From NCBI GenBank assembly GCA_040954595.2, contig CM082579.2, forward strand, positions 15,476,550 through 15,540,549: a stretch of DNA of 64,000 nucleotides. Reading direction: 5' to 3'. The position numbers and the translations under genes were made by a program. Shown in pieces: positions 3,160 through 24,718 of this stretch. The notes under the pieces were generated by a model. The model worked only from the letters and a program-made list of their open reading frames with translations, was not told the origin of the DNA and searched no databases. Source of the stretch: Balanoglossus misakiensis. Lineage: Eukaryota > Animalia > Hemichordata. The first letter of the stretch is position 1. Every line of letters starts with the position of its first letter.

Positions 3160-3845
3160 GCAAATATGGCATTTTTTGTTCAACTCTTCTCATTTGCATA
3201 GTCCAAAATGGCCGCCAAACTCCTCTAACATGTAAATTTCCTATGGTCGTCTTAAAAAGCGTGTAGTATCGCATTTGAAGGGTTTTCATCAACATAGGTA
3301 CCTAAAACAATTTCAACGTGGTTGACATTGCAATGTTAGACAGCTGTTCTAATTTGCATAATCTAGAATGGCCGACAAACTTCTCTAACATGTAAATTTA
3401 CTATGGTTGTCTTTAATAGAGTGTAATATCGCATTTGCAGGGTTTTCATCAATATGGGTACCTAAAACAATTTCAACGTCGTTGACATGGCAATATTAGA
3501 CAGCTGTTCTAATTTGCATAATCCAAAATGGCCACCAAACTCTTCTTAAATGTAAATTTCCCTGTTTTGTCTTATATGGTGCCTAAAATCGCATTTGCAG
3601 GGTTTTCATCAATATGGGTAACTAAAACAATTTCAGCGTGGTTGACATGGCAATATTAGACAACTGTTCTAATTTGCATAATCCAAAATGGCCGACAAAC
3701 TTCTCTATTATGTAAGTTTCCCTGGTTTGTCTTATATGGTGTGTAATATCGCATTTTCACGGTTTTAATTAATATGGGTACCTAAAACAATTTCAACGTG
3801 GTTGACATGGCAATATTAGACAACTGTTATAATTTGCATAATTCG
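3160..3845. repeat. Tandem repeat, 160-bp unit, about 4.2 copies
   Basis: atttgcata recurs at 3192, 3352, 3512, 3672 and 3832 with conserved flanks (ccaaaatggcc, gggttttcatcaa, cctaaaacaatttcaacgt). Confidence 0.9.
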
Positions 3846-4450
3846 AACACCTGCTGGATAATTTAATTTTTGCCCTTCTTGTCCCATGATTATATGTGTA
3901 ATATCTCATTTTCAATGTGTTTACATGTATATATGCAGAATCCATTTCAAACTAAGTGGGCATATTGTAGCGCCAATCTTATTTCTTAATCCGCACCACA
4001 GAACTGATGCAAGGTTTAGGACTGGAAATGTATGTGGCCACTGGCCGACACCCCGGGCGAGAGGTCTCCAATTATTTTCAGCACGTAGTGTGCTTCCCGG
4101 TTGATAACATCAATATGTGTAAATGCCAAAAACCCGACCTATTGTAATACCAGTCAAATTTTCTTTGTCATTTACCATTTTTCTCTTGCATATGAAGGTT
4201 TTTCTTAAAGAGTACATACCCATATACATTTGTATGGGAGCACACACCCCACCCCCTGCCAACAATAATTGGACAACTTTATTCTTCTTATACTTCTTTT
4301 TAGTCTAAACATTCATATAGAGAAGGCAACATGTTCTTGAAGCTGCTGAATATGGAAATATGATGAAGTACATTTTCCTAGTTGTACATGTACAGTATGA
4401 TAGGCCCAATGTACCAATTGGAGATGTGTGCCTTACAGGCAACATACATG

Positions 4451-7400
4451 TAGCTCTGCATGGCCTGGTTAATCAATGTTGACGCAAAGGTTGACCCCAC
4501 CAAACACTCAAAATTAATGGGCACGACACTGGCCACTAGCTCTGCATGGCCTGGTTAATCAATGTTGACGCAAAGGTTGACCCCACCAAACACTCAAAAT
4601 TAATGGGCACGACACTGGCCACTAGCTCTGCATGGCCTGGTTAATCAATGTTGACGCAAAGGTTGACCCCACCAAACACTCAAAATTAATGGGCACGACA
4701 CTGGCCGCTAGCTCTGCATGGCCTGGTTAATCAATGTTGACGCAAAGGTTGACCCCACCAAACACTCAAAATTGATGGGCACGACACTGGCCGCTAGCTC
4801 TGCATGGCCTGGTTAATCAATGTTGACGCAAAGGTTGACCCCACCAAACACTCAAAATTGATGGGCACGACACTGGCCGCTAGCTCTGCATGGCCTGGAA
4901 ATCAATGTTGACGCAAAGGTTGACCCCACCAAACACTCAAAATTGATGGGCACGACACTGGCCGCTAGCTCTGCATGGCCTGGTTAATCAATGTTGACGC
5001 AAAGGTTGACCCCACCAAACACTCAAAATTAATGGGCACGACACTGGCCGCTAGCTCTGCATGGCCTGGTTAATCAATGTTGACGCAAAGGTTGACCCCA
5101 CCAAACACTCAAAATTAATGGGCACGACACTGGCCACTAGCTCTGCATGGCCTGGTTAATCAATGTTGACGCAAAGGTTGACCCCACCAAACACTCAAAA
5201 TTAATGGGCACGACACTGGCCACTAGCTCTGCATGGCCTGGTTAATCAATGTTGACGCAAAGGTTGACCCCACCAAACACTCAAAATTAATGGGCACGAC
5301 ACTGGCCGCTAGCTCTGCATGGCCTGGTTAATCAATGTTGACGCAAAGGTTGACCCCACCAAACACTCAAAATTGATGGGCACGACACTGGCCGCTAGCT
5401 CTGCATGGCCTGGTTAATCAATGTTGACGCAAAGGTTGACCCCACCAAACACTCAAAATTGATGGGCACGACACTGGCCGCTAGCTCTGCATGGCCTGGA
5501 AATCAATGTTGACGCAAAGGTTGACCCCACCAAACACTCAAAATTGATGGGCACGACACTGGCCACTAGCTCTGCATGGCCTGGAAATCAATGTTGACGC
5601 AAAGGTTGACCCCACCAAACACTCAAAATTGATGGGCACGACACTGGCCACTAGCTCTGCATGGCCTGGCTAATCAATGTTGACGCAAAGGTTGACCCCA
5701 CCAAACACTCAAAATTGATGGGCACGACACTGGCCACTAGCTCTGCATGGCCTGGCTAATCAATGTTGACGCAAAGGTTGACCCCACCAAACACTCAAAA
5801 TTGATGGGCACGACACTGGCCACTAGCTCTGCATGGCCTGGATAATCAATGTTGACGCAAAGGTTGACCCCACCAAACACTCAAAATTGATGGGCACGAC
5901 ACTGGCCACTAGCTCTGCATGGCCTGGTTAATCAATGTTGACGCAAAGGTTGACCCCACCAAACACTCAAAATTGATGGGCACGACACTGGCCACTAGCT
6001 CTGCATGGCCTGGTTAATCAATGTTGACGCAAAGGTTGACCCCACCAAACACTCAAAATTGATGGGCACGACACTGGCCACTAGCTCTGCATGGCCTGGT
6101 TAATCAATGTTGACGCAAAGGTTGACCCCACCAAACACTCAAAATTGATGGGCACGACACTGGCCACTAGCTCTGCATGGCCTGGTTAATCAATGTTGAC
6201 GCAAAGGTTGACCCCACCAAACACTCAAAATTGATGGGCACGACACTGGCCACTAGCTCTGCATGGCCTGGTTAATCAATGTTGACGCAAAGGTTGACCC
6301 CACCAAACACTCAAAATTGATGGGCACGACACTGGCCACTAGCTCTGCATGGCCTGGTTAATCAATGTTGACGCAAAGGTTGACCCCACCAAACACTCAA
6401 AATTGATGGGCACGACACTGGCCACTACCTCTGCATGGCCTGGTTAATCAATGTTGACGCAAAGGTTGACCCCACCAAACACTCAAAATTGATGGGCACG
6501 ACACTGGCCACTACCTCTGCATGGCCTGGTTAATCAATGTTGACGCAAAGGTTGACCCCACCAAACACTCAAAATTGATGGGCACGACACTGGCCACTAG
6601 CTCTGCATGGCCTGGTTAATCAATGTTGACGCAAAGGTTGACCCCACCAAACACTCAAAATTGATGGGCACGACACTGGCCACTAGCTCTGCATGGCCTG
6701 GTTAATCAATGTTGACGCAAAGGTTGACCCCACCAAACACTCAAAATTGATGGGCACGACACTGGCCACTAGCTCTGCATGGCCTGGTTAATCAGGGTTG
6801 ACGCAAAGGTTGACCCCACCAAACACTCAAAATTGATGGGCACGACACTGGCCACTAGCTCTGCATGGCCTGGCTAATCAAGGTTGACGCAAAGGTTGAC
6901 CCCACCAAACACTCAAAATTGATGGGCACGACACTGGCCACTAGCTCTGCATGGCCTGGTTAATCAATGTTGACGCAAAGAATGACCCCACCAAACACTC
7001 AAAATTGATGGGCACGACACTGGCCACTAGCTCTGCATGGCCTGGTTAATCAATGTTGACGCAAAGGTTGACCCCACCAAACACTCAAAATTGATGGGCA
7101 CGACACTGGCCACTAGCTCTGCATGGCCTGGTTAATCAATGTTGACGCAAAGGTTGACCCCACCAAACACTCAAAATTGATGGGCACGACACTGGCCACT
7201 AGCTCTGCATGGCCTGGTTAATCAATGTTGACGCAAAGGTTGACCCCACCAAACACTCAAAATTGATGGGCACGACACTGGCCACTAGCTCTGCATGGCC
7301 TGGTTAATCAATGTTGACGCAAAGGTTGACCCCACCAAACACTCAAAATTAATGGGCACGACACTGGCCACAAGCTCTGGGCTGGCTAATCAATGTTGAC

Positions 7401-10400
7401 GCAAAGGTTGACCCCACCAAACACTCAAAATTAATGGGCACGACACTGGCCACTAGCTCTGGGCTGGCTAATCAATGTTGACGCAAAGGTTGACCCCACC
7501 AAACACTCAAAATTAATGGGCACGACACTGGCCACTAGCTCTGCATGGCCTAGCTAATTAAGGTTGACGCAAAGGTTGACCCCACCAAACACTCAAAATT
7601 GATGGGCACGACACTGGCCACTAGTTCTGCATGGCCTGGCTAATCAAGGTTGACGCAAAGGTTGACCCCACCAAACACTCAAAATTGATGGGCACGACAC
7701 TGGCCACTAGCTCTGCATGGCCTGGCTAATCAAGGTTGACGCAAAGGTTGACCCAACAAAAACACTCAAAATTGATGGGCACGACACTGGCCACTAGCTC
7801 TACATGGCCTGGCTAATCAAGGTTGACGCAAAGGTTGACTCCACCAAACACTCAAAATTGATGGGCACGACACTGGCCACTAGCTCTGCATGGCCTGGCT
7901 AATCAAGGCCTGGCTAATCAAGGTTGACGCAAAGGTTGACCCCACCAAACACTCAAAATTGATGGGCACGACACTGGCCACTAGCTCTGGCCTGGCTAAT
8001 CAAGGTTGACGGAAAGGTTGACCCCACCAAACACTCAAAATTGATGGGCACGACACTGGCCACTAAGCTCTGCATGGCCTGGCTAATCAAGGTTGACGCA
8101 AAGGTTGACCCCACAAAAACACTCAAAATTGATGGGCACGACACTGGCCACTAGCTCTGCATGGCCTGGCTAATCAAGGTTGACGCAAAGATTGACCCCA
8201 CCAAACACTCAAAATTGATGGGCACGACACTGGCCACTAGCTCTGCATGGCCTGGCTAATCAAGGCCTGGCTAATCAAGGTTGATGCAAAGGTTGACCCC
8301 ACCAAACACTCAAAATTGATGGGCACGACACTGGCCACTAGCTCTGGCCTGGCTAATCAAGGTTGACGCAAAGGTTGACCCCACCAAACACTCAAAATTG
8401 ATGGGCACGACACTGGCCACTAGCTCTGCATGGCCTGGCTAATCAAGGTTGACGCAAAGGTTGACTCCACCAAACACTCAAAATTAATGGGCGCGACACT
8501 GGCCACTAAGCTCTGGCATGGCTAATCAATGTTGACGCAAGGGTTGACCCCACCAAACACTCAAAATTGATGGGCGCGACACTGGCCACTAGCTCTGGCC
8601 TGGCTAATCAAGGTTGACGCAAGGGTTGACCCCACCAAACACTCAAAATTAATGGGCGCGACACTGGCCACTAGATCTGGCCTGGCTAATCAAGGTTGAC
8701 GCAAGGGTTGACCCCACCAAACACTCAAATTTAATGGGCGCGACACTGGCCACTAGCTCTGGCCTGGCTAATCAATGTTGACGCAAGGGTTGACCCCACC
8801 AAACACTCAAAATTGATGGGCACGACACTGGCCACTAGCTCTGGCCTGGCTAATCAATGTTGACGCAAGGGTTGACCCCAGCAAACACTCAAAATTGATG
8901 GGCACGACACTGGCCACTAGCTCTGGCCTGGCTAATCAAGGTTGACGCAAGGGTTGACCCCAGCAAACACTCAAAATTAATACGCGCGACACTGGCCACT
9001 AAGCTCTGGCCTGGCTAATCAATGTTGACGCAAGGGTTGACACCACCAAACACTCATAATTGATGGGCACGACACTGGCCACTAGCTCTGGCTGGCTAAT
9101 CAAGGTTGACGCAAGGGTTGACCCCACCAAACACTCAAAATTGATGGGAACGACACTGGCCACTAACCTCTGGCCTGGCTAATCAATGTTGACGCAAAGG
9201 TTGACCCCACCAAACACTCAAAATTGATGGGCACGACACTGGCCACTAGCTCTGGCCTGGCTAATCAATGTTGACGCAAGGGTTGACCCCACCAAACAGT
9301 CAAAATTGATGGGCACGACACTGGCCACTAGCTCTGGCCTGGCTAATCAATGTTGACGCAAATGTTGACCCCACCAAACACTCAAAATTGATGGGCACGA
9401 CACTGGCCACTAGCTCTGGCCTGGCTAATCAATGTTGACGCAAGGGTTGACCCCACCAAACACTCAAAATTGATGGGCATGACACTGGCCACTAGCTCTG
9501 GCCTGGCTAATCAATGTTGACGCAAGGGTTGACCCCACCAAACACTCAAAATTGATGGGCACGACACTGGCCACTAGCTCTGGGCTGGCTAATCAATGTT
9601 GACGCAAAGGTTGACCCCACCAAACACTCAAAATTAATGGGCACGACACTGGCCACTAGCTCTGGGCTGGCTAATCAATGTTGACGCAAAGGTTGATCCC
9701 ACCAAACACTCAAAATTAATGGGCACGACACTGGCCACTAGCTCTGCATGGCCTGGCTAATCAATGTTGACGCAAATGTTGACCCCACCAAACACTCAAA
9801 ATTGATGGGCACGACACTGGCCACTAGCTCTGCATGGCCTGGCTAATCAATGTTGACGCAAATGTTGACCCCACCAAACACTCAAAATTGATGGGCACGA
9901 CACTGGCCACTAGCTCTGCATGGCCTGGCTAATCAATGTTGACGCAAAGGTTGACCCCACCAAACACTCAAAATTGATGGGCACGACACTGGCCACTAGC
10001 TCTGCATGGCCTGGTTAATCAATGTTGACGCAAAGGTTGACCCCACCAAACACTCAAAATTGATGGGCACGACACTGGCCACTAGCTCTGCATGGCCTGG
10101 TTAATCAATGTTGACGCAGAGGTTGACGCCACCAAACACTCAAAATTAATGGGCACGACACTGGCCACTAGCTCTGCATGGCCTGGTTAATCAATGTTGA
10201 CGCAAAGGTCGACGCCACCAAACACTCAAAATTAATAGGCACGACACTGGCCACTAGCTCTGCATGGCCTGGTTAATCAATGTTGACGCAAAGGTCGACC
10301 CCACCAAACACTCAAAATTAATGGGCACGACACTGGCCACTAGCTCTGCATGGCCTGGTTAATCAATGTTGACGCAAAGGTTGACCCCACCAAACACTCA

Positions 10401-11016
10401 AAATTGATGGGCACGACACTGGCCACTAGCTCTGGCCTGGCTAATCAATGTTGACGCAAGGGTTGACCCCACCAAACACTCAAAATTGATGGGCACGACA
10501 CTGGCCACTAGCTCTGGCCTGGCTAATCAATGTTGACGCAAGGGTTGACCCCACCAAACACTCAAAATTGATGGGCACGACACTGGCCACTAGCTCTGGC
10601 CTGGCTAATCAATGTTGACGCAAGGGTTGACCCCACCAAACACTCAAAATTGATGGGCACGACACTGGCCACTAGCTCTGGGCTGGCTAATCAATGTTGA
10701 CGCAAAGGTTGACCCCACCAAACACTCAAAATTAATGGGCACGACACTGGCCACTAGCTCTGGGCTGGCTAATCAATGTTGACGCAAAGGTTGACCCCAC
10801 CAAACACTCAAAATTAATGGGCACGACACTGGCCACTAGCTCTGCCTGGCCTGGCTAATCAATGTTGACGCAAAGGTTGACCCCACCAAACACTCAAAAT
10901 TGATGGGCACGACACTGGCCACTAGCTCTGCATGGCCTGGCTAATCAATGTTGACGCAAATGTTGACCCCACCAAACACTCAAAATTGATTGGCACGACA
11001 CTGACCACTAGCTCTG
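4451..11016. repeat. Satellite array, 86-bp unit (82-87 bp variants), about 77 copies
   Basis: The unit tagctctgcatggcctggttaatcaatgttgacgcaaaggttgaccccaccaaacactcaaaattgatgggcacgacactggccac repeats head-to-tail (starts 4451, 4537, ...). A 4-bp-shorter variant dominates about 8500-9700 and 10430-10800. Confidence 0.98.
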
Positions 11017-11057
11017 CACTACAGCCCAGTGTGCGCCATCTTTGTCCGATATTTCCG
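11017..11057 (+). repeat. Left terminal inverted repeat (imperfect, about 40 bp)
   Basis: Begins CACT and shares the blocks GCCCAG, TGTG, TTTGTCCG and TTCCG with the reverse complement of 16543-16582. Confidence 0.8.
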
Positions 11058-12051
11058 TCCCTACTTTCATGGCCTCATGAATAATGTATGAGGCGATTTG
11101 TTACCGGCAATGGAACGTTCGCCAGTTACAACAACATGAAAATGCCGGTAAGTATTACAAGACATTAAACGCATTTATAATGTTTACATCACGTTATCAT
11201 ATTCTTTAAGGTCTTAAGCTAGTATTGTCATCATTCTCTGATTTCTATTCATTTAATTTCACTGAAAATCTGACCTGGTTTCAAATCGCTATCATTGGTA
11301 ACTATGTAAACAAAGAACATAGCAACCACAACCAAGACAGAAAAACGGCCGAAAAAATCAAATCTTAATGCATTATTCAAAATTTCAAAACCATGAGAGT
11401 GTTCCTAAGACGTTTGTAACTCAGTGTTTTGATTTTCTATCCCCAAAAAGGTCATATGTAGAAATTGATCCAAGCAGAAATTCATCGAGTTTGGCGCGTT
11501 CTGCCTGCGCGTCGCTCTACCATTGATTACAATGGCACAGCTACGCAAATGTCGACCGTCAGGCAAAACATATCGGCAGATTTCTCGAGTTTGAAGCGTG
11601 AACCTAAAAAACCAAAACGAGCAGATTGTTCCTTGATATCTATATAACATGTTGATATATCATTTTCGTTCTAAAATGTAAGAGTAAATATTTTGAACGA
11701 GAGAGTTCTTGCGACAGCGCTTTGAACGCCGCGCGCGTACAGCGTTTAGGCAAAGCAGACGCACACAGAAGGAACTGCGTCCACGCGCAATATACGTAGA
11801 TTGCAGCTGATTATACTCAATCAATGTTCCGGTACTTGCAACAGTATGCCAGTACTTCGCAAAATACACAGTCTTTTATATCATCAGGTCTTCTGTAGCG
11901 TCATTAAATACTGTCTGTTTGGAACTGTTTGACTGAAACAGCTTTCTAGATGACCTTTTATGTTTTCTACAACTTTTCACATTTATTCACATTTAGGAAA
12001 TGCTCCATTGTGTAACTCCATCCCAGCTGTGCTCTGGATATAACTCAAATC

Positions 12052-15000
12052 ATGCCTAACAGGAAAAGGACAAACCATTTTGACATCGGGCAGTATGCAG
12101 TCCAACAAAAAAAAGCCAGAGAAATAGCTAGAGACATACAACTTCAACAGCTGTTAGATGCTGAGTTAGCTGCAAAGACACTGCCAGAAAAGGTTAAGAG
12201 CAAGTCAGAGAATAGATACAAGCTAGGGGCATGGGCAAGAGAGAGAAAGCGTAGACGTGAGGAAGAGGTAGCTCAGTACAGAGAGAAAATGCAGAAATTA
12301 GATGCAAAGAGGAGACTAGTCGACAGGGCCAGTAAGCAACTAAACAGGCTAGCAAAGAAGCAAAGGAGATTAGCTGGAAATAGGGTTAAGCTTAATCAGG
12401 AGGTAAGGTAATTATATAGAAGGAATTTAGCTTCATTTCAGATTTTCACAAGATTTATGATTACAAGCAGAATAGGAAAATATCCACCAAATTAAAGTTT
12501 GTATACTTTAAATTATATTACAACTAAGTGAATCATAAAATATTTTGACCTTGCTTTAATGTATATGATATGATTTTATGTGTGTTTGTTTTCTAAATTC
12601 TGAACTACAGCTTTGAAACACCTCCCTGCTTGACCTTGGCATAACACTGGGGTTTCCATTTATGCATATTGCTTGCTCATGTGACATTGCCTCTCTGTTT
12701 GACCTTGGCATGACACTGGGATTTCCATTCATGTGTATTGCTTGATCATGTGATATTCTCTCTCTGTTTGACCTTGGCATGACACTGGGGTTTCCATTCA
12801 TGTGTATTGCTTGCTCATGTGACATGGCCTCCATGTTGACCTTGGCATGACACGTGGGTTTCCATTTATGTGTATTGCTTGCTCATGTGACATGGCCTCC
12901 ATGTTTGACCTTGGCATGACACTGGGGTTTCCATTTATGTGTATTGCTTGCTCATGTGACATGGCCTCCATGTTTGACCTTGGCATGAAACTGGGATTTC
13001 CATTCATGTGTATTGCTTGATCATGTGATATTCTCTCTCTGTTTGACCTTGGCATGACACTGGGGTTTCCATTCATGTGTATTGCTTGCTCATGTGACAT
13101 GGCCTCCATGTTTGACCTTGGCATGACACTGGGGTTTCCATTCATGTGTATTGCTTGCTCATGTGACATTGCCTACCTGTTTGACCTTGGCATGACAATG
13201 AAAATCTGTTTTGTATTCATTTATTAAAGATTGCAGATTTGACATCCCCAAAGAAACAGAAGTGGGTTCATAAAAGCAGCCAGGTTTGTGCTAATAACAG
13301 TGAATGCCTCACACTGTCCAGAAGTCAGCAACATGAACGCAGAAGTCAGACTCTTCATGCAGCTACAGTCATACACCAGTCATCATCAGGAACAGATATA
13401 TCTGCAGGGAGACATGTCAGTGCAAATCCACCAAAATCAGCTCTTGATGGGCTATGGTATACTTTGATCAACAGTGCCACTCCACGTCAAATGGAAAAGT
13501 ACCTTCAATCATCAATGAAAATAAATGAATTGGTCATACCAACTTTGATAAAGAAATCAATATCTGAATTTGAGAAAAGTGAAGGTAATTTGACTAGGAG
13601 TGTGCAAGTGTTGTATCAGAATGGGGTTTTGTCAAAACGCAAATACAATGCCTTACGTAATAGTGAGTTGAATCTGTCTAAATTAAAACAACCTAGAAAA
13701 GTGTTGCAATTTCACTTTAGGTGTAACATACCAAGGTTACTTTCCTACAACAAGGTCACTGAATATACACGTGGTTTAGATATAGGAAGTCTTGAACCAA
13801 TTGTAACAGATGCAAACAAAGTAGTGGGTATGAAGCGAAATACAGAGCAGATGCTCTTTAAAGTTGCTGACATGTATCTTTGCTTGAGTGAGCACCACCC
13901 TAACATCCTAAATTGGTTTGGCAAACCGAAGGGCACTTTCCAACTTGCTGTTGGTGCTGATGGGGCTCCTTTTGGAAAATATGGTCAGGCAACTTCCTGG
14001 CTTGTCAGTTTCATCAATGTGGGCCACAGATTAGCAAGCCCTGATGATAATTTCTTGTTGCTAGGGGCTAATCTGAAGGAAGATGACCCAGTCCTGATAG
14101 ATTATGCTAAAAACCTAGCCAAAGAGTTTGAGATCATAGAGGCCAAACAATACACTTTACATGGCCTGAGTGTAAAGTTTAATGTATCTTTGCTGCCATT
14201 TGATCAAAAGGGATTAGCCTCAGTTTCTGGTGAGTTATCTAATGCTGCTGAGTATTTCAGTTCCTTTGCTGATGTAACAAAAGGTAGCATAGATGAAATA
14301 GGGGCAGATATAGGGCCAGGGAAATTTTGGTCAGAGTGGAGCTATAAGCAGTGGCCAAATTCAAAGCAAATTTGACAAAGAAAACAGGTAAGCCTGAAAC
14401 ATCGACAGATCGCTCTAAGGTCACACGTTTCATTGCCTCCAGAAAATCCCGACAGGAATATATTCCACCCCTGGGTAAGTATATACAGTGTGCCAAGATA
14501 GAACCCCTACATCTAAAAAACAATGCCTGGCAGTATTTCTTTCAAAGGCTTCTTACTGATGCTGTGGCTAAGACTGACCAAAAAGTCATTGACCATGGTG
14601 TGAAATTAGAAAAGCTACCACCAAATTCATGCCTGTACAAATTCCTGCATACACTAAAATATACAGTGAGAGCAGGGAAACTATACAATCAAATTGTCAA
14701 ATATTTTGCTGAGAATAAGGTTAGTACCCATGCCCAATCAGTGAGAGTTCACCGCTTTACAGGGGAAGAATCAAGGAAGTTGGCATGGTCTTTTATGTCA
14801 CTGATAGAGTGTTTTAGGGAACCCGGTATCAGTGCACAGGTGAGAGCGAAATTGTCCCTGTATGGTTACATTGGTGTCCTACTCAGAGATATAACATCTC
14901 TCTGTTCCAGGTTTACCCTACATGAGAGAGATATTGTAGTACTAAGGCAGAAGTGCAAATGGTACTTCAATTTGCATGCGTTATTTCTGACCGTAAACAA

Positions 15001-15436
15001 TACTATTTGGCATATAGGATATGTTGTTCCGTGTCATGCATCTCAAATCCACCAGCAGTTCCAAATGGGGCTTGGGCTTAATACAATGGAGGGCAGGGAG
15101 GCAAAACATCAGCGCCTTCTGGAATACAGCAATAATTCCACCCCTCAAAATAGATGGCCACTAATTTTCAGACATGAGTATGTATTGTTGTACTGGTTAC
15201 GCATGCGAGACCCCGCTTCAGATAACTACAGGGGGGATGGGAGGTCAAATGCCTCCAAAGTAATAAAGTACATCCCAGACAAATGCTTTGATGACCCATC
15301 ATACTGTTATTGTGGGAATGTAAAGGAAGAGTTGTCAAATTCCTGTGAAATATGCAGCAGTGAATTTATGTCAGAAATAAAACAGTCTGCAATTAGTGGT
15401 AAGATCTCAAAAAAACTAAAAAAAATAATGAAATAA
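12052..15436 (+). pseudogene. Spliced DDE transposase with RAG1/Transib-like core; one frameshift near 14350
   Basis: Exon 12052-12402 (basic, donor GAG|gtaagg) splices in phase 0 to 13230 (ttattaaag|ATT GCA GAT TTG), in frame with ORF 13239. That ORF shifts frame into ORF 14351-15436. Motifs in order: GADGAPFG, LPFDQK, IEPLHLKNN, FTGEESRKL, GLGLNTMEGREAKH, and a C-terminal CxC...CxxC. Confidence 0.8.
12628..13197. repeat. Intronic minisatellite, 69-bp unit, about 8 copies
   Basis: gtttgaccttggcatgacactggggtttccattcatgtgtattgcttgctcatgtgacatggcctccat repeats in tandem inside the transposase intron (12403-13229). Confidence 0.95.
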
Positions 15437-15856
15437 AATGTGAAAGTTTGAATTTCATGATTCAAAACAATTATTACTGTACATGAAATGTACCAGATAG
15501 TTTTAGATTTGTATATAACTGTAAGAGAGTTTGTTGTAAATAATCTTTCATTATGAATGTCACAGATTTTGTGCTGCTTGTATTGTATTGTTCAAAATAT
15601 GTATATAGCTTTTTAATCATCCTTTGAAACTAGCTGCTTATATCAGCTCTGTAGATAACCATGTTTCAAAATAAGTGAATAAAAACTGAATGATAAATGA
15701 TTCACCCACAGCTATTCAGTTCCTATAAAACATGTTTTTCTTTTTTAATTTTGCTTGGACATGCAACGATGCATGAATTCAAATGGACTGACAAAAAGTA
15801 ATATAGTCAGTTCCAAGAACATGAAAAAAAATTTCAACAACAGTCTAAATATGATT

Positions 15857-16477
15857 TCACAAATGCTGAGCAACACCATGTTTGTTCCAGCATCCAAAAT
15901 GGAAATGTATTGTCACTGTCTCGGCTGATTTCCTGTATCTGACAATCATAGGTTTATCTTCGGTGCAGATAACTTCCACCCGCTTACCCTTTACTGTCTT
16001 CACCAGAAGTTGTTGGTTTTCATAGTTGACACCTCTACCCAGCACGTAATTCACTTTGTTGATCCAGGTAAATCGAAAGGTAGCAATACATGGAGTTTCC
16101 CGATCATAAATTCCCATTGAATTACGGGTAGCGCACTTTCGAAATACATCGAAAACTTCCATAGGAACATTCCTACCAAAACTGCACTTCCATGGGTTGC
16201 GCACTGAGGGTGATGGCTTCATTCTCTGCATAATTGTTGAGCGCCAGTGACACATCTCCCGTTCGAATACAGGATACACCGGAATCTGCTGCATCTTCGC
16301 AAGCTCCACCATCGTTGCACTACGTTTGCGAACTGTTACATCAACAGCAGCATCGAGATCATCAAAACAATCATGTAGGTTGATGGAACGGTCGATATTT
16401 GTCCTCAATAACTGAAATTTGGCCTCACGCAGCTTACGTTTCACTGTTTTAGAAACATCGATCATGGACGCCGCCAT
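15857..16477 (-). CDS. Uncharacterised 206-aa protein, transposon accessory gene convergent with the transposase
   Basis: Uninterrupted ORF with a strong start context (aaaATGGCGGCG) 105 bp inside the right TIR. Composition looks globular; no domain recognised. Confidence 0.7.
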   Translation of the reverse strand: MAASMIDVSKTVKRKLREAKFQLLRTNIDRSINLHDCFDDLDAAVDVTVRKRSATMVELAKMQQIPVYPVFEREMCHWRSTIMQRMKPSPSVRNPWKCSFGRNVPMEVFDVFRKCATRNSMGIYDRETPCIATFRFTWINKVNYVLGRGVNYENQQLLVKTVKGKRVEVICTEDKPMIVRYRKSAETVTIHFHFGCWNKHGVAQHL

Positions 16478-16542
16478 TTTGTATATACGATGCTAGGAAC
16501 GTGACCCCAGCATATGACCTCAATTAACATATTTCCGCTTCG

Positions 16543-16582
16543 CGGAATAGCGGACAAATGAACACACTTCTGGGCCGCAGTG
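16543..16582 (-). repeat. Right terminal inverted repeat
   Basis: cggaatagcggacaaatgaacacacttctgggccgcagtg, followed by the CTG target duplication. Confidence 0.8.
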
Positions 16583-16585
16583 CTG

Positions 16586-17195
16586 CATTTTTGGAGTGGT
16601 CGAAAGTTTTAACATACAATCAACATGTCATATATGATCAGGGCACCAAATTCGAAGAACAAAGGTTTTTTTATTTTTTTTCTAAAAATGACATTTTCAA
16701 GGAAAATTTGGTAAAACGCAATTTCGTCTGCAGTGAGCCAAATTAGACTGTATTTTGTGGAATTTGTATCGATATATACATACGAAGAGCATTCTATACT
16801 CCATCAGATTTCCGAAAATGTAGAAAACAGGTATTTTTTGTAATTTTCAAAAATTTACCATTTTGACCAAATTGTGGCTAAAATTGTTATTTTCGTGTTG
16901 AATGCCGCCAGTGTCACTGCTTTTAAAAGTCATCAAAACTTTTAACATACAAGCAATTGTTTATATATGATCAGGTCACCGAATTAAAAAAATAAAGAAT
17001 GTTTTCCCTAAAAATGACCTTTTTGGTGCAAAAACGAATAAAACGCAATTTTGTATTAAATCAGCTCATTCAGAGTGCATTTTTTATAATCAGCACCATT
17101 TTTTACATATAATGGAAATTTCATACATCATCAGATATCCAAATATGAAAAAATGATTTAGATTTTAGATGATTGTCCAAAATTAGCTGATATCT
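16586..17195. repeat. AT-rich dispersed repeat fragment; the first ~390 bp are near-identical to ~23594-23984
   Basis: catttttggagtggtcgaaagttttaacatacaatc...tatatatgatcagg occurs at both places. The motif aatcagcaccatttt...ttcatacatcatc resembles internal repeats of the 51348-54354 element. Confidence 0.8.
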
Positions 17196-17440: not shown

Positions 17441-18542
17441 CTAGAGTGTCGGGTCTTTTGCAGAGCCAGGCCGAAGGAAATCCGAGTAGATCAACGTGGT
17501 CTCTGTACGCGTGTTTCTGCTCTAGAGTGTCGGGTCTTTTGCAGAGCCAGGCCTAAGGAATTCCGACTTGATCAACGTTGCTAACGAACGCTAGTGTCTG
17601 TCATGGTGTGCCGGGGTTTTAGTCGAGCCAGGCCGTAGGAGATCTGACTTGATCATCGTGGTCAATGTACGCGTGTTTCCGCTCTAAAGTGCCGGGGCTT
17701 CAGCTAAACCAGGCCGTAGGAAATCCGACGTAATCACCGTTGATAACTTCCGCCAGTCTGTGTCATATAGAGCCGGTGCACCAGCCGAGTCACGCCGTAG
17801 GAAATCTGACTTGATCAACGTGGTCAATGTACGCCTGTTTCTGCTCTAGAGTGCAGGGGCTTCAGCTAAACCAGGCCGTAGGAAATCCGACGTAATCACC
17901 GTTGATAACTTACGCCAGTCTGTGTCATATAGAGCCGGTGCACCAGCCGAGTCACGCCGTAGGAAATCTGACTTGATCAACGTGGTCAATGTACGCCTGT
18001 TTCTGCTCTAGAGTGCCGGGGCTTCAGCTGAGCCAGGCCGTAGGAAACCCGACGTGATTACCGTTGTTAACTTACGCCAGTCTGTGTCCTATATGTAGTG
18101 CCGGGGCATCAGCCGTGCCAGGCCGAAGGAAATGTGAGTAGATCATCGTGGTCTCTGTACGCGTGTTTCTGGTCTATAGTGCCAGGGCTTTAGCTAAGCC
18201 ATGCCGTAGGAAATATGACTTGATCAACGTTGCTTACTAACGCTAGTGTCTGTCATAGTGTGCCGGGGTTTTAGTCGAGCCAAGCCGTAGGAGATCAGAC
18301 TTGATCAACGTGCTCTCTGTACGCGTGTTTCTGCTCTAGAGTGCCGGGGCTTTATCCAAGCCATGCCGTAGAAAATCTGACTTGATCACCGTTGCTAACG
18401 TACGCTAGTGTCTGTCATATTGTGACGGAGATTTAGCCGAGCCAGGCAGTAGAAAAATCGACTTGTTCAACGTTAACAGTGTGCAACTGTTTCTGCTCTA
18501 GAGTGTCAGGGTTTTAGCCGACTTATGCTGTAGGAAATCTTA
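17441..18542. repeat. CpG-rich tandem repeat, ~81-bp unit with alternating A/B (162-bp) higher order, about 13-14 copies
   Basis: ctagagtg(t/c)cgggg...ccaggccgtaggaaatc(c/t)gacttgatca(a/c)cgt recurs at 17441, 17522, 17602 and 17684; the dimer period is 17684 to 17846. Confidence 0.9.
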
Positions 18543-18619
18543 GTTGATGAACGGGAATTCAATGTTAGAAAACCCGTGTGGAAAGTATCTCTACCCGTTT
18601 GAAACTAAGAAAAGAATTT

Positions 18620-23341: not shown

Positions 23342-23984
23342 TTTATTTTGTAAAAAAGACAATTTTTCGAGAGAAAAAAAGTCGAAAATGGTAATTTTTT
23401 CTTGGGTGATTCAAATTATACCGCCTTTTCTGGAATTTGCAGCACTTTTTACAAGAGAACGACACTTCATGCTCCATAACATTTCCGAAAATGAAGAAAA
23501 GAGTTATTTTTTTAGGATTTTTCAAAAATTTACCATTTTTGTCAAAATATGGCCAAAATGGCTATTTTTACTTGAATTCCGTCAATATCTTTGCATTTTT
23601 GGAGTGGTCGAAAGTTTTAACATACAATCAACATGTCATATATGATCAGGGCACCAAATTCGAAGAACAAAGGTTTTTTTTATTTTTTTTTCTAAAAATG
23701 ACATTTTCAAGGAAAATTTGGTAAAACGCAATTTTGTCTGCAGTGAGCCAAAGTAGACGGTCTTTTGTGGAATTTGTATCGATATATACATACGAAGAGC
23801 ATTCTATACTCCATCAGATTTCCGAGAATGTAGAAAACAGGTATTTTTGTAATTTTCAAAAATTTACCATTTTGTCCAAATTGTGGCTAAAATTGTTATT
23901 TTCGTGTTGAATGCCGCCAGTGTCACTGCTTTTAAAAGTCATAAAAACTTTTAACATACAAGCAATTGTTTATATATGATCAGG
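23342..23984. repeat. Second copy of the AT-rich dispersed repeat, interrupted by the Gypsy LTR
   Basis: Identity with 16586-16975 stops at tatatgatcagg|tgtgac. Confidence 0.8.
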
Positions 23985-24718
23985 TGTGACGATATTCTGT
24001 GATTTAGCATAATTGTATGTACTTGTAATTGTCTCTCTAGAGTTTACGCCCTCGGTGGTGAGATTTAGTATATTGAATACGTGTGTTTTAGTAGCTTGGG
24101 GAGTCTTGAGGACCACCTGGTCTGACTACTTCCTAGGGGATTTGATTTGATGGCAGCCATAGCGTTTGACGTGTATGATTTTGGATCCATAGACATCCTC
24201 CAACCATGTGAGTTTTGACTATCACTTTTCATCTCAACCTGTGGTATATTTTAAGAACCCAACACACTACACTGAATTGATGTCGAAATGTTTTGAAATT
24301 GGGCGTTTAGCCGTATGGAACTTTGATCTGTCAATGGACATTGATGGTGTGGAATAAATGTGCGGTGACGTCTCGGTGTACTTTGGCAAGTGCACGAAGA
24401 GTATCTGCGTCGCGGTCAAGTCGGACAGGAGGAAGACCTGGATGAATTACCAGACTCCACATGCATGCCAACGAGGACGATGTTTGTCGGACTTTATTTA
24501 TTAGATTCAAGTTAAGTTAAGATAAGTTAAGATTGTAACGGATTATTTTCATAAGTTTGACCACGTGGCGTTTTGATTGTCATGTCTGTATATGGTATTT
24601 TGATGTACGAGTAATATTTTCATGATTAGTAATTAAATCCCCAGGTGGAATATATTTTCGTAGATTTGATCGTTCGATTCGATTTGTCTAGTTCACGTAT
24701 GGCCGTCGATGCGTGACA
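23985..24718 (+). mobile_element. 5' LTR of a Gypsy (Gmr1-like) retrotransposon
   Basis: TGTGACG...CGTGACA termini. It starts where the host repeat breaks and is followed directly by a PBS. Confidence 0.8.

Follow-up and report, generated by a model that had tools for sequence, protein, structure and literature searches.

An apparently undescribed two-gene lineage of transposons with a predicted RAG1-type transposase fold

We describe a transposon of the hemichordate Balanoglossus misakiensis and the family to which it belongs. The sequence analysed comprises 64,000 nucleotides (nt) of contig CM082579.2 (assembly GCA_040954595.2, positions 15,476,550 to 15,540,549). It is called the window here, and coordinates are positions within it. 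The element occupies 11017-16582 and carries two convergent genes, encoding a transposase of predicted RAG1-type fold and a small basic partner. It represents an apparently undescribed, widespread two-gene lineage of RAG1-fold transposons in marine invertebrates. As a fixed component of the family, the partner is inherited together with the transposase. This RAG-style gene layout likely had a separate origin.

Table 1. Features of the element and its margins. aa, amino acids; pI, isoelectric point; ORF, open reading frame; TIR, terminal inverted repeat; TSD, duplication of the target site.
Feature	Position	Strand	Remarks
Left TSD copy, CTG	11014..11016	+	End of 86-bp satellite array 4451-11018
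Left TIR, CAC start	11017..11029	+	Loose similarity to right end continues until ~11046
Probable first exon of transposase, 117 aa, basic, helical	12052..12402	+	ORF; predicted splicing
Probable intron	12403..13229	+	Holds 69-bp tandem array 12621-13197, 8.4 copies
Transposase main exon, part 1	13230..14351	+	Catalytic D 13959, D 14202; no C(2)C after second D
Transposase part 2, after frameshift near 14350	14348..15436	+	Catalytic E 15098; CxC..CxxC at 15305-15355
Partner gene, 206 aa, pI 9.8, intact	16477..15857	-	Helical hairpin and alpha/beta domain predicted; C-terminal motif
Right TIR, CAC start	16570..16582	-	Ends 105 nt past partner ATG
Right TSD copy, CTG	16583..16585	+	Start of truncated high-copy interspersed repeat

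The partner gene and the ends across the family

The original prediction, made from the letters of the window, described an intact 206-aa gene lying tail-to-tail with the plus-strand transposase. The minus-strand ORF is indeed open. We scanned metagenome contigs and confirmed 232 transposase relatives; locus counts below refer to the best 80 of these 232. A partner homologue is found downstream of the transposase, on the opposite strand, in 34 of the 80 loci. The partner had been expected to be constant, and a check for relatives without a second ORF did not refute this. Thirty of the 33 loci with at least 1500 bases of room downstream have the partner, and so do 33 of the 39 with 1200 bases or more. 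The full gene never occurs in any arrangement other than the convergent one.

We compared descent of the two genes in 36 transposase/partner pairs, with locus L081 and the window taken in. These form 19 families at 90% transposase identity. Over the 19 families, median identity is 39% for the transposase and 22% for the partner. The two trees have 9 of 16 splits in common; 10,000 shuffles gave a mean of 0.25 and a maximum of 4. The ratio of nonsynonymous to synonymous substitution rates (dN/dS) of the partner is about 0.2-0.35 in five pairs with dS of 0.17-0.34, closer pairs having too few changes and distant pairs being saturated. These ratios indicate that the partner is under purifying selection. 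A chance neighbour gene was rejected as an explanation, given the near-constant convergent placement and the shared tree splits.

Bounded elements are 4.2-8.5 kb long. They start with CAC, mostly as CACGC(C/T)GGG, and the right end lies some 75-125 bases past the start of the partner match. The 3-bp TSD of the original prediction held up among relatives. Seven of 14 elements with two flanks have an exact 3-bp flank match (the window, L003, L041, L064, L068, L070 and L081), the chance level being 4 of 159 cross-pairs. None of the 14 has a duplication of 4-8 bp. The left flanks of L040 and L045 are the same as that of L041, and that of L066 is the same as that of L068. Such sharing points to multi-copy assemblies that were collapsed. 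The bounds of L055 were probably set too far in, and the missing match is unexplained in L002, L006 and L008. The element L068 is 6.7 kb long with both genes open, the transposase at 3409-5508 and the partner at 6853-6239, matching ends and a TAG duplication. As a separate observation, L066, L067 and L068 have a short plus-strand match to the partner C-terminal region (profile positions 161-192, E 2e-6) about 2.5 kb upstream of the transposase.

Transposase fold and kinship

The window gene being broken, we modelled a relative, P0001, with AlphaFold2. This 679-aa protein is from Ptychodera flava. The model has a predicted local distance difference test score (pLDDT) of 87.7 and a predicted template modelling score of 0.86. 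The original prediction had assigned a RAG1-type fold and proposed comparison with RAG1 and HzTransib, and the model agrees with that assignment. Foldseek matched it to RAG1 at E 1.6e-12. In VIA-align, RAG1 scored Z 22.9 (root mean square deviation 3.7, 465 residues aligned), followed by BbRAG1L (Z 20.1), HzTransib (Z 19.9; 6pqx) and the P element (Z 12.5); the next row scored 7.6. An unfiltered structure search without Foldseek gave the same ranking as the Foldseek-filtered list. Structure-based identity to RAG1 is 8-13%. The model found no match among viral structures at E 0.001. The transposase is thus predicted to have a RAG1-type fold with a DDE active site.

The structure lists from the Protein Data Bank (PDB) contained no CACTA, Chapaev or Mirage transposase. 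Hence, RAG1 may lead these lists by default. In the ESM Atlas, the family's own clusters come first, three in number, unnamed and mostly cnidarian (scores 2868-5377). Outside the family come RAG1 (template modelling (TM) score 0.63, score 722), EnSpm Transposase_21 (TM 0.62, score 704), a cluster in which 16% of the members carry DUF1280 (TM 0.58, score 686) and Plavaka (TM 0.59, score 604). DUF1280 corresponds to Chapaev, according to a passage of PMC3985635. RAG1, EnSpm, Chapaev-like and Plavaka clusters are therefore level, and by predicted structure the family appears about equally far from all of these branches. This comparison does not show the special affinity to RAG1 and Transib that had been claimed.

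A query with the C-terminal half found 32 long homologues, and a profile built from them matched 317 proteins, 120 of them listed. Hosts among the named matches listed are Ptychodera, Nematostella, Actinostola, Exaiptasia, Actinia, Dendronephthya and Lineus; most matches are unnamed. None of the 32 members matched a transposase family at E 0.1 in a local copy of Pfam. PDB sequence searches with the C-terminal half and with the transposase profile gave nothing under E 0.5, and no Transib, RAG1L or CMC sequence came back from any search. Viral contigs contained no relative. Prokaryote genomes contained one locus, L081, in a metagenome-assembled bacterial genome. There, 4241-12782 is a complete 8.5-kb element with an ATA duplication. 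It is likely host DNA in a bacterial bin, where it might be mistaken for a bacterial member.

The three acidic residues that the original prediction had picked out (D, D and E; Table 1) are kept in 135, 135 and 134 of 135 aligned homologues. Their setting differs from that in RAG1, Transib and the CMC families, all of which have the C(2)C zinc motif; its absence here had been overlooked. No homologue among the 135 has a CxxC within 38 residues past the second D, and in the interval from the second D to the E no cysteine column exceeds 90 of 135. At the C-terminus, a four-cysteine motif, CxC..CxxC, is present in 127 of 135. We infer a loss or a rebuilding of the core zinc site, with another kind of zinc module placed at the tail. 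This is the clearest sign of a separate lineage. For the clade of EnSpm, Chapaev, Mirage, Plavaka, ESTA, Lanisha and Transib (CMCT), excerpts of Kojima 2025 give CA..TG termini, a TSD of 2-5 bp and a C(2)C common to all lineages, Lanisha included (PMC12730594). The present family breaks this rule, and therefore C(2)C-based classification and homology searches would miss it. It resembles CMCT elements in its CA..TG termini, in a TSD within 2-5 bp and in predicted fold (TM 0.58-0.62). The second histidine of H(3-4)H, the motif before the catalytic E, is also kept, in 133 of 135. However, just 70 of 135 have the whole of H(4)H, the window copy having the second histidine only, and no Pfam match to CMCT families was found among the 32 members.

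The family could already have an entry in Repbase or Dfam, filed under EnSpm, Chapaev or Transib as a subgroup, with only the second gene unannotated or overlooked. Repbase covers Nematostella and corals well. CAC..GTG ends with a 3-bp TSD are criteria for filing under EnSpm (PMC12730594, in part), into which Repbase folds Chapaev and Mirage (a section of PMC4455052). The nearest non-family Atlas cluster by features is the one with DUF1280, and some Transib relatives make 3-bp TSDs (excerpt of 10.64898/2026.08.26.747230). Our literature searches found no description of the family; they did not cover Repbase, Dfam and Repbase Reports, which could hold members, nor the PMC9435367 supplement, whose many Transib-like proteins could include some. 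Conversely, the Pfam result for the 32 members and the absence of C(2)C from all 135 homologues speak against such a placement, as do the Atlas scores, which reach at most 722 for any named family. We consider prior deposition somewhat unlikely.

RAG-like (RAGL) elements are among the closest known systems. These have the layout TIR-RAG1L-RAG2L-TIR (PMC7204232, PMC9435367 and passages of PMC10629977). Like them, the present elements have a convergent gene pair, CAC-starting TIRs, catalytic residues in D-D-E order, a cysteine-rich C-terminal tail and, by the model, the transposase fold. Hosts in hemichordates, nemerteans and cnidarians are also common to both. Hence the term ProtoRAG-like, used in the original prediction, is apt for the layout and does not stand for a demonstrated descent. 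Such descent, from RAGL or from Transib, would mean that RAG2L was replaced by a new partner and that the layout was inherited from ProtoRAG-like ancestors. The gene order, CAC ends and C-terminal cysteine motif would fit, RAG1 is the top solved fold, and RAG1_RNase_H clusters rank 7 and below by features. Against this, identity to RAG1, at ~10%, falls short of the 26% average among RAG1L and Transib proteins (PMC9435367). There is no Pfam RAG1 match, and the TSD is 3 bp rather than the 5 bp of RAGL. ProtoRAG has ZnC2/ZnH2 zinc ligands and a CTT* motif, Cx2Cx3GHx4C (a section of PMC7204232); here the ZnC2 cysteines are absent (0/135), the tail motif is different and no ring or Chapa zinc fingers were seen. 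We regard descent from RAGL or Transib as very improbable.

Transib itself is similar in its RAG1-core fold, as predicted here, its D-D-E triad, CAC ends and compact transposase. However, Transib elements carry a single gene, their TSD is usually 5 bp and motif 7 contains two conserved cysteines (the latter from part of PMC1131882), whereas the present family has two genes, a 3-bp TSD and no such cysteines.

Structure and predicted role of the partner

An exhaustive HMMER search with the partner gave 118 matches, mostly of 200-240 aa or fragments; a word-based search found none among 47 candidates. The partner alignment has 99 rows, comprising the query and 98 matches. Twenty short, long or repetitive matches were left out, including P0052, P0105 and P0142, long repetitive proteins that look spurious. 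The best-conserved feature is a C-terminal (Y/F)GxWNxxGx(P/A)QH. Ten partner clusters that were looked up had no informative name, a PDB sequence search with the partner profile gave nothing under E 0.5, and the ESM Atlas gave no usable match. The structural model is confident (pLDDT 94.8) and shows an N-terminal helical hairpin, then an alpha/beta domain; its six helices and seven strands form nothing like a propeller. RAG2L of RAGL elements is a six-bladed kelch propeller, often with a PHD; the partner here is a 206-aa alpha/beta protein with neither. A RAG2L identity was therefore rejected, and in this respect the original prediction, which called the partner unrelated, was right. One of the matches, P0112, is a gene model of Tubulanus polymorphus with a partner-like domain at 466-608 after tau/MAP tubulin-binding repeats, and may be a fusion or a gene-model artefact.

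We think that the partner is probably an accessory factor for transposition. The fixed position and the purifying selection across divergent families argue that it serves the element. By analogy with RAG1, ProtoRAG and Transib, the transposase would be a cut-and-paste DDE enzyme of RAG1 type, a dimer of which would bind the short CAC ends. Cleavage would proceed by nick and hairpin, as passages of PMC10629977 describe for RAG, BbRAGL and HzTransib, and insertion would follow with a 3-bp stagger. The C-terminal four-cysteine motif may bind end DNA, as the CTT* of ProtoRAG does (PMC7204232, in part). The partner may bind the transposase or subterminal DNA, using its basic surface and the conserved motif at its C-terminus. 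Its role would be like that of RAG2L in RAGL elements or of TnpA in En/Spm. Excerpts of PMC13547354 report that TnpA, an accessory protein, was modelled in complex with its transposase and is either spliced from the same gene or placed head-to-tail. The partner here differs in being convergent and in matching no Pfam TnpA family.

Alternatively, the partner could act on the host and not in the transposition complex, as an anti-silencing factor or a regulator of element expression. Its median pI over 29 locus copies is 9.7, a basic value, and its sequence changes faster than that of the transposase. Other DNA transposons carry accessory genes such as TET/JBP and VANC (parts of PMC12730594 and PMC13547354), and a host-directed role would yield the same co-descent and purifying selection. 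However, no chromatin-reader, protease or dioxygenase domain was detected in the partner by Pfam and fold searches. Furthermore, a single partner family accompanies every one of the 19 transposase families sampled, whereas many lineages acquired TET/JBP genes by captures of their own. A host-directed role is, in our view, unlikely.

By the usual account, RAG had a single origin, in which RAG2 was gained by a Transib-type element. Taken together, the family may be a superfamily-level RAG1-fold lineage that lacks the zinc site of its relatives and works as two subunits with a partner of new fold. This would be a second independent origin of a RAG1/RAG2-style heteromeric transposase, a reading that we offer tentatively. 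Several observations weigh against our main account, that of a two-gene RAG1-fold transposon with an accessory partner. The structure was predicted for P0001 and not for the broken gene of the window. The 99 partner rows show no recurring Pfam family, and neither kelch nor PHD was matched among them. Fold comparisons of the partner gave no clear match; the best, at Z 7.3, covers a 58-residue helical hairpin alone, and the alpha/beta domain, taken within the larger model, reached Z of at most 5.0, which falls short of establishing a new fold. The partner is missing from six loci that have 1200 or more bases of room. A richer profile detected no partner remnant in them, and they showed no right end of the family pattern either; they may be truncated copies, and single-gene members may exist. 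One conflict between the trees has support in each of them: the partner tree groups L026+L028 at 100, and the transposase tree groups L002+L005+L026 at 84. Half of the 14 bounded elements lack a 3-bp match. Finally, any gene carried by an element should show co-descent with it, and purifying selection indicates benefit to the element rather than a role in a cutting complex.

If the two-subunit reading is true, RAG1-fold transposases gain second subunits repeatedly. The family would then be a natural comparison for the first use of RAG2 to its transposon, and intact two-gene elements such as L068 make the role of the partner directly testable. The surprise is limited, in that this is still a cut-and-paste transposon of DDE type and several superfamilies are known to include elements with two genes.

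The window copy and its surroundings

The left end (11017-11029) reads CACTACAGCCCAG. The right end (16570-16582, reverse complement) reads CACTGCGGCCCAG. The element starts with CACT and closes with AGTG, and the two 13-nt termini agree at 11 positions, consistent with the inverted ends first proposed. We compared 8120 CAC..GTG pairs around both genes. Two pairs agree at 11 of 13 positions and only the 11017/16582 pair also has a 3-bp duplication. A repeat search of the window gave no entry for this TIR, which is short and imperfect.

The flanks of the element are two different repeats. On the left, a satellite of 77 copies of an 86-bp unit, with 82-bp variants, stops exactly at the left end. 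On the right, 16583-16976 is a very high-copy interspersed repeat broken off at the element end, with a 97% identical second copy at 23592-23985. Both flanks nevertheless read CTGCAT at the junction. The CTG duplication of the original prediction is present in the letters on both sides and is therefore weak evidence in this copy. A rearrangement adjoining the element is likely. Hence, its own CTG counts little and TSD length rests on relatives.

Two runs, X1 and X2, come from one sample, perhaps the window's own source. X1 contigs pass unbranched from each element end into its flank, and the window copy looks like a single locus. An X2 contig covers the frameshift place near 14350 without gaps; therefore, the frameshift is present in the sample itself. 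An assembly artefact was rejected, since contigs of these runs cross both ends and the frameshift. One X2 contig joins the left flank (11014-11018) to the right flank (16585) with the element absent. Its junction reads CTG, then CAG (the reverse complement) and then CTG with one letter changed, the form expected of an excision footprint left by hairpin opening. This is a single contig, not present in X1, whose shorter side has 27 letters, and a further satellite/repeat junction could account for it.

The transposase gene is split over two plus-strand frames (13185-14375 and 14348-15436), which are 65% and 60% identical to consecutive parts of P0001. Relative to P0001, about 22 nt are missing near 14350. 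The window copy is likely inactive on its own. Upstream, the frame at 12052-12402 shows weak similarity to P0027, P0014 and P0016 at their N-termini (E 0.0005-0.005 in the set of 135), and a GT donor at 12403 and an AG acceptor at 13229 are in phase. On these grounds the frame is probably exon 1 of the transposase, joined by predicted splicing. A Pfam search of four window ORFs returned weak unrelated rows only.

Two short words recur near the ends. CAGCGG, noted by eye, occurs some 30-70 bases in from the right end, upstream of the partner ATG, in 7 of 10 families (L002, L003, L006, L040, L055, L060 and L064), with a one-letter variant in L066/L068. It could be a promoter element or an internal binding site. 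GCCATnTT occurs near several left ends and overlaps the partner start codon (11035-11042 and 16473-16480 in the window, and many loci). We take this word to be YY1-like; it may be merely a common start context. YY1 is reported to regulate ProtoRAG via its TIR (PMC7481187).

An 81-bp tandem array lies downstream of the element, at 17441-18553. Diverged contigs over 13911-14314, 15065-15225 and 15856-15896 suggest other families of the same element in the sample.

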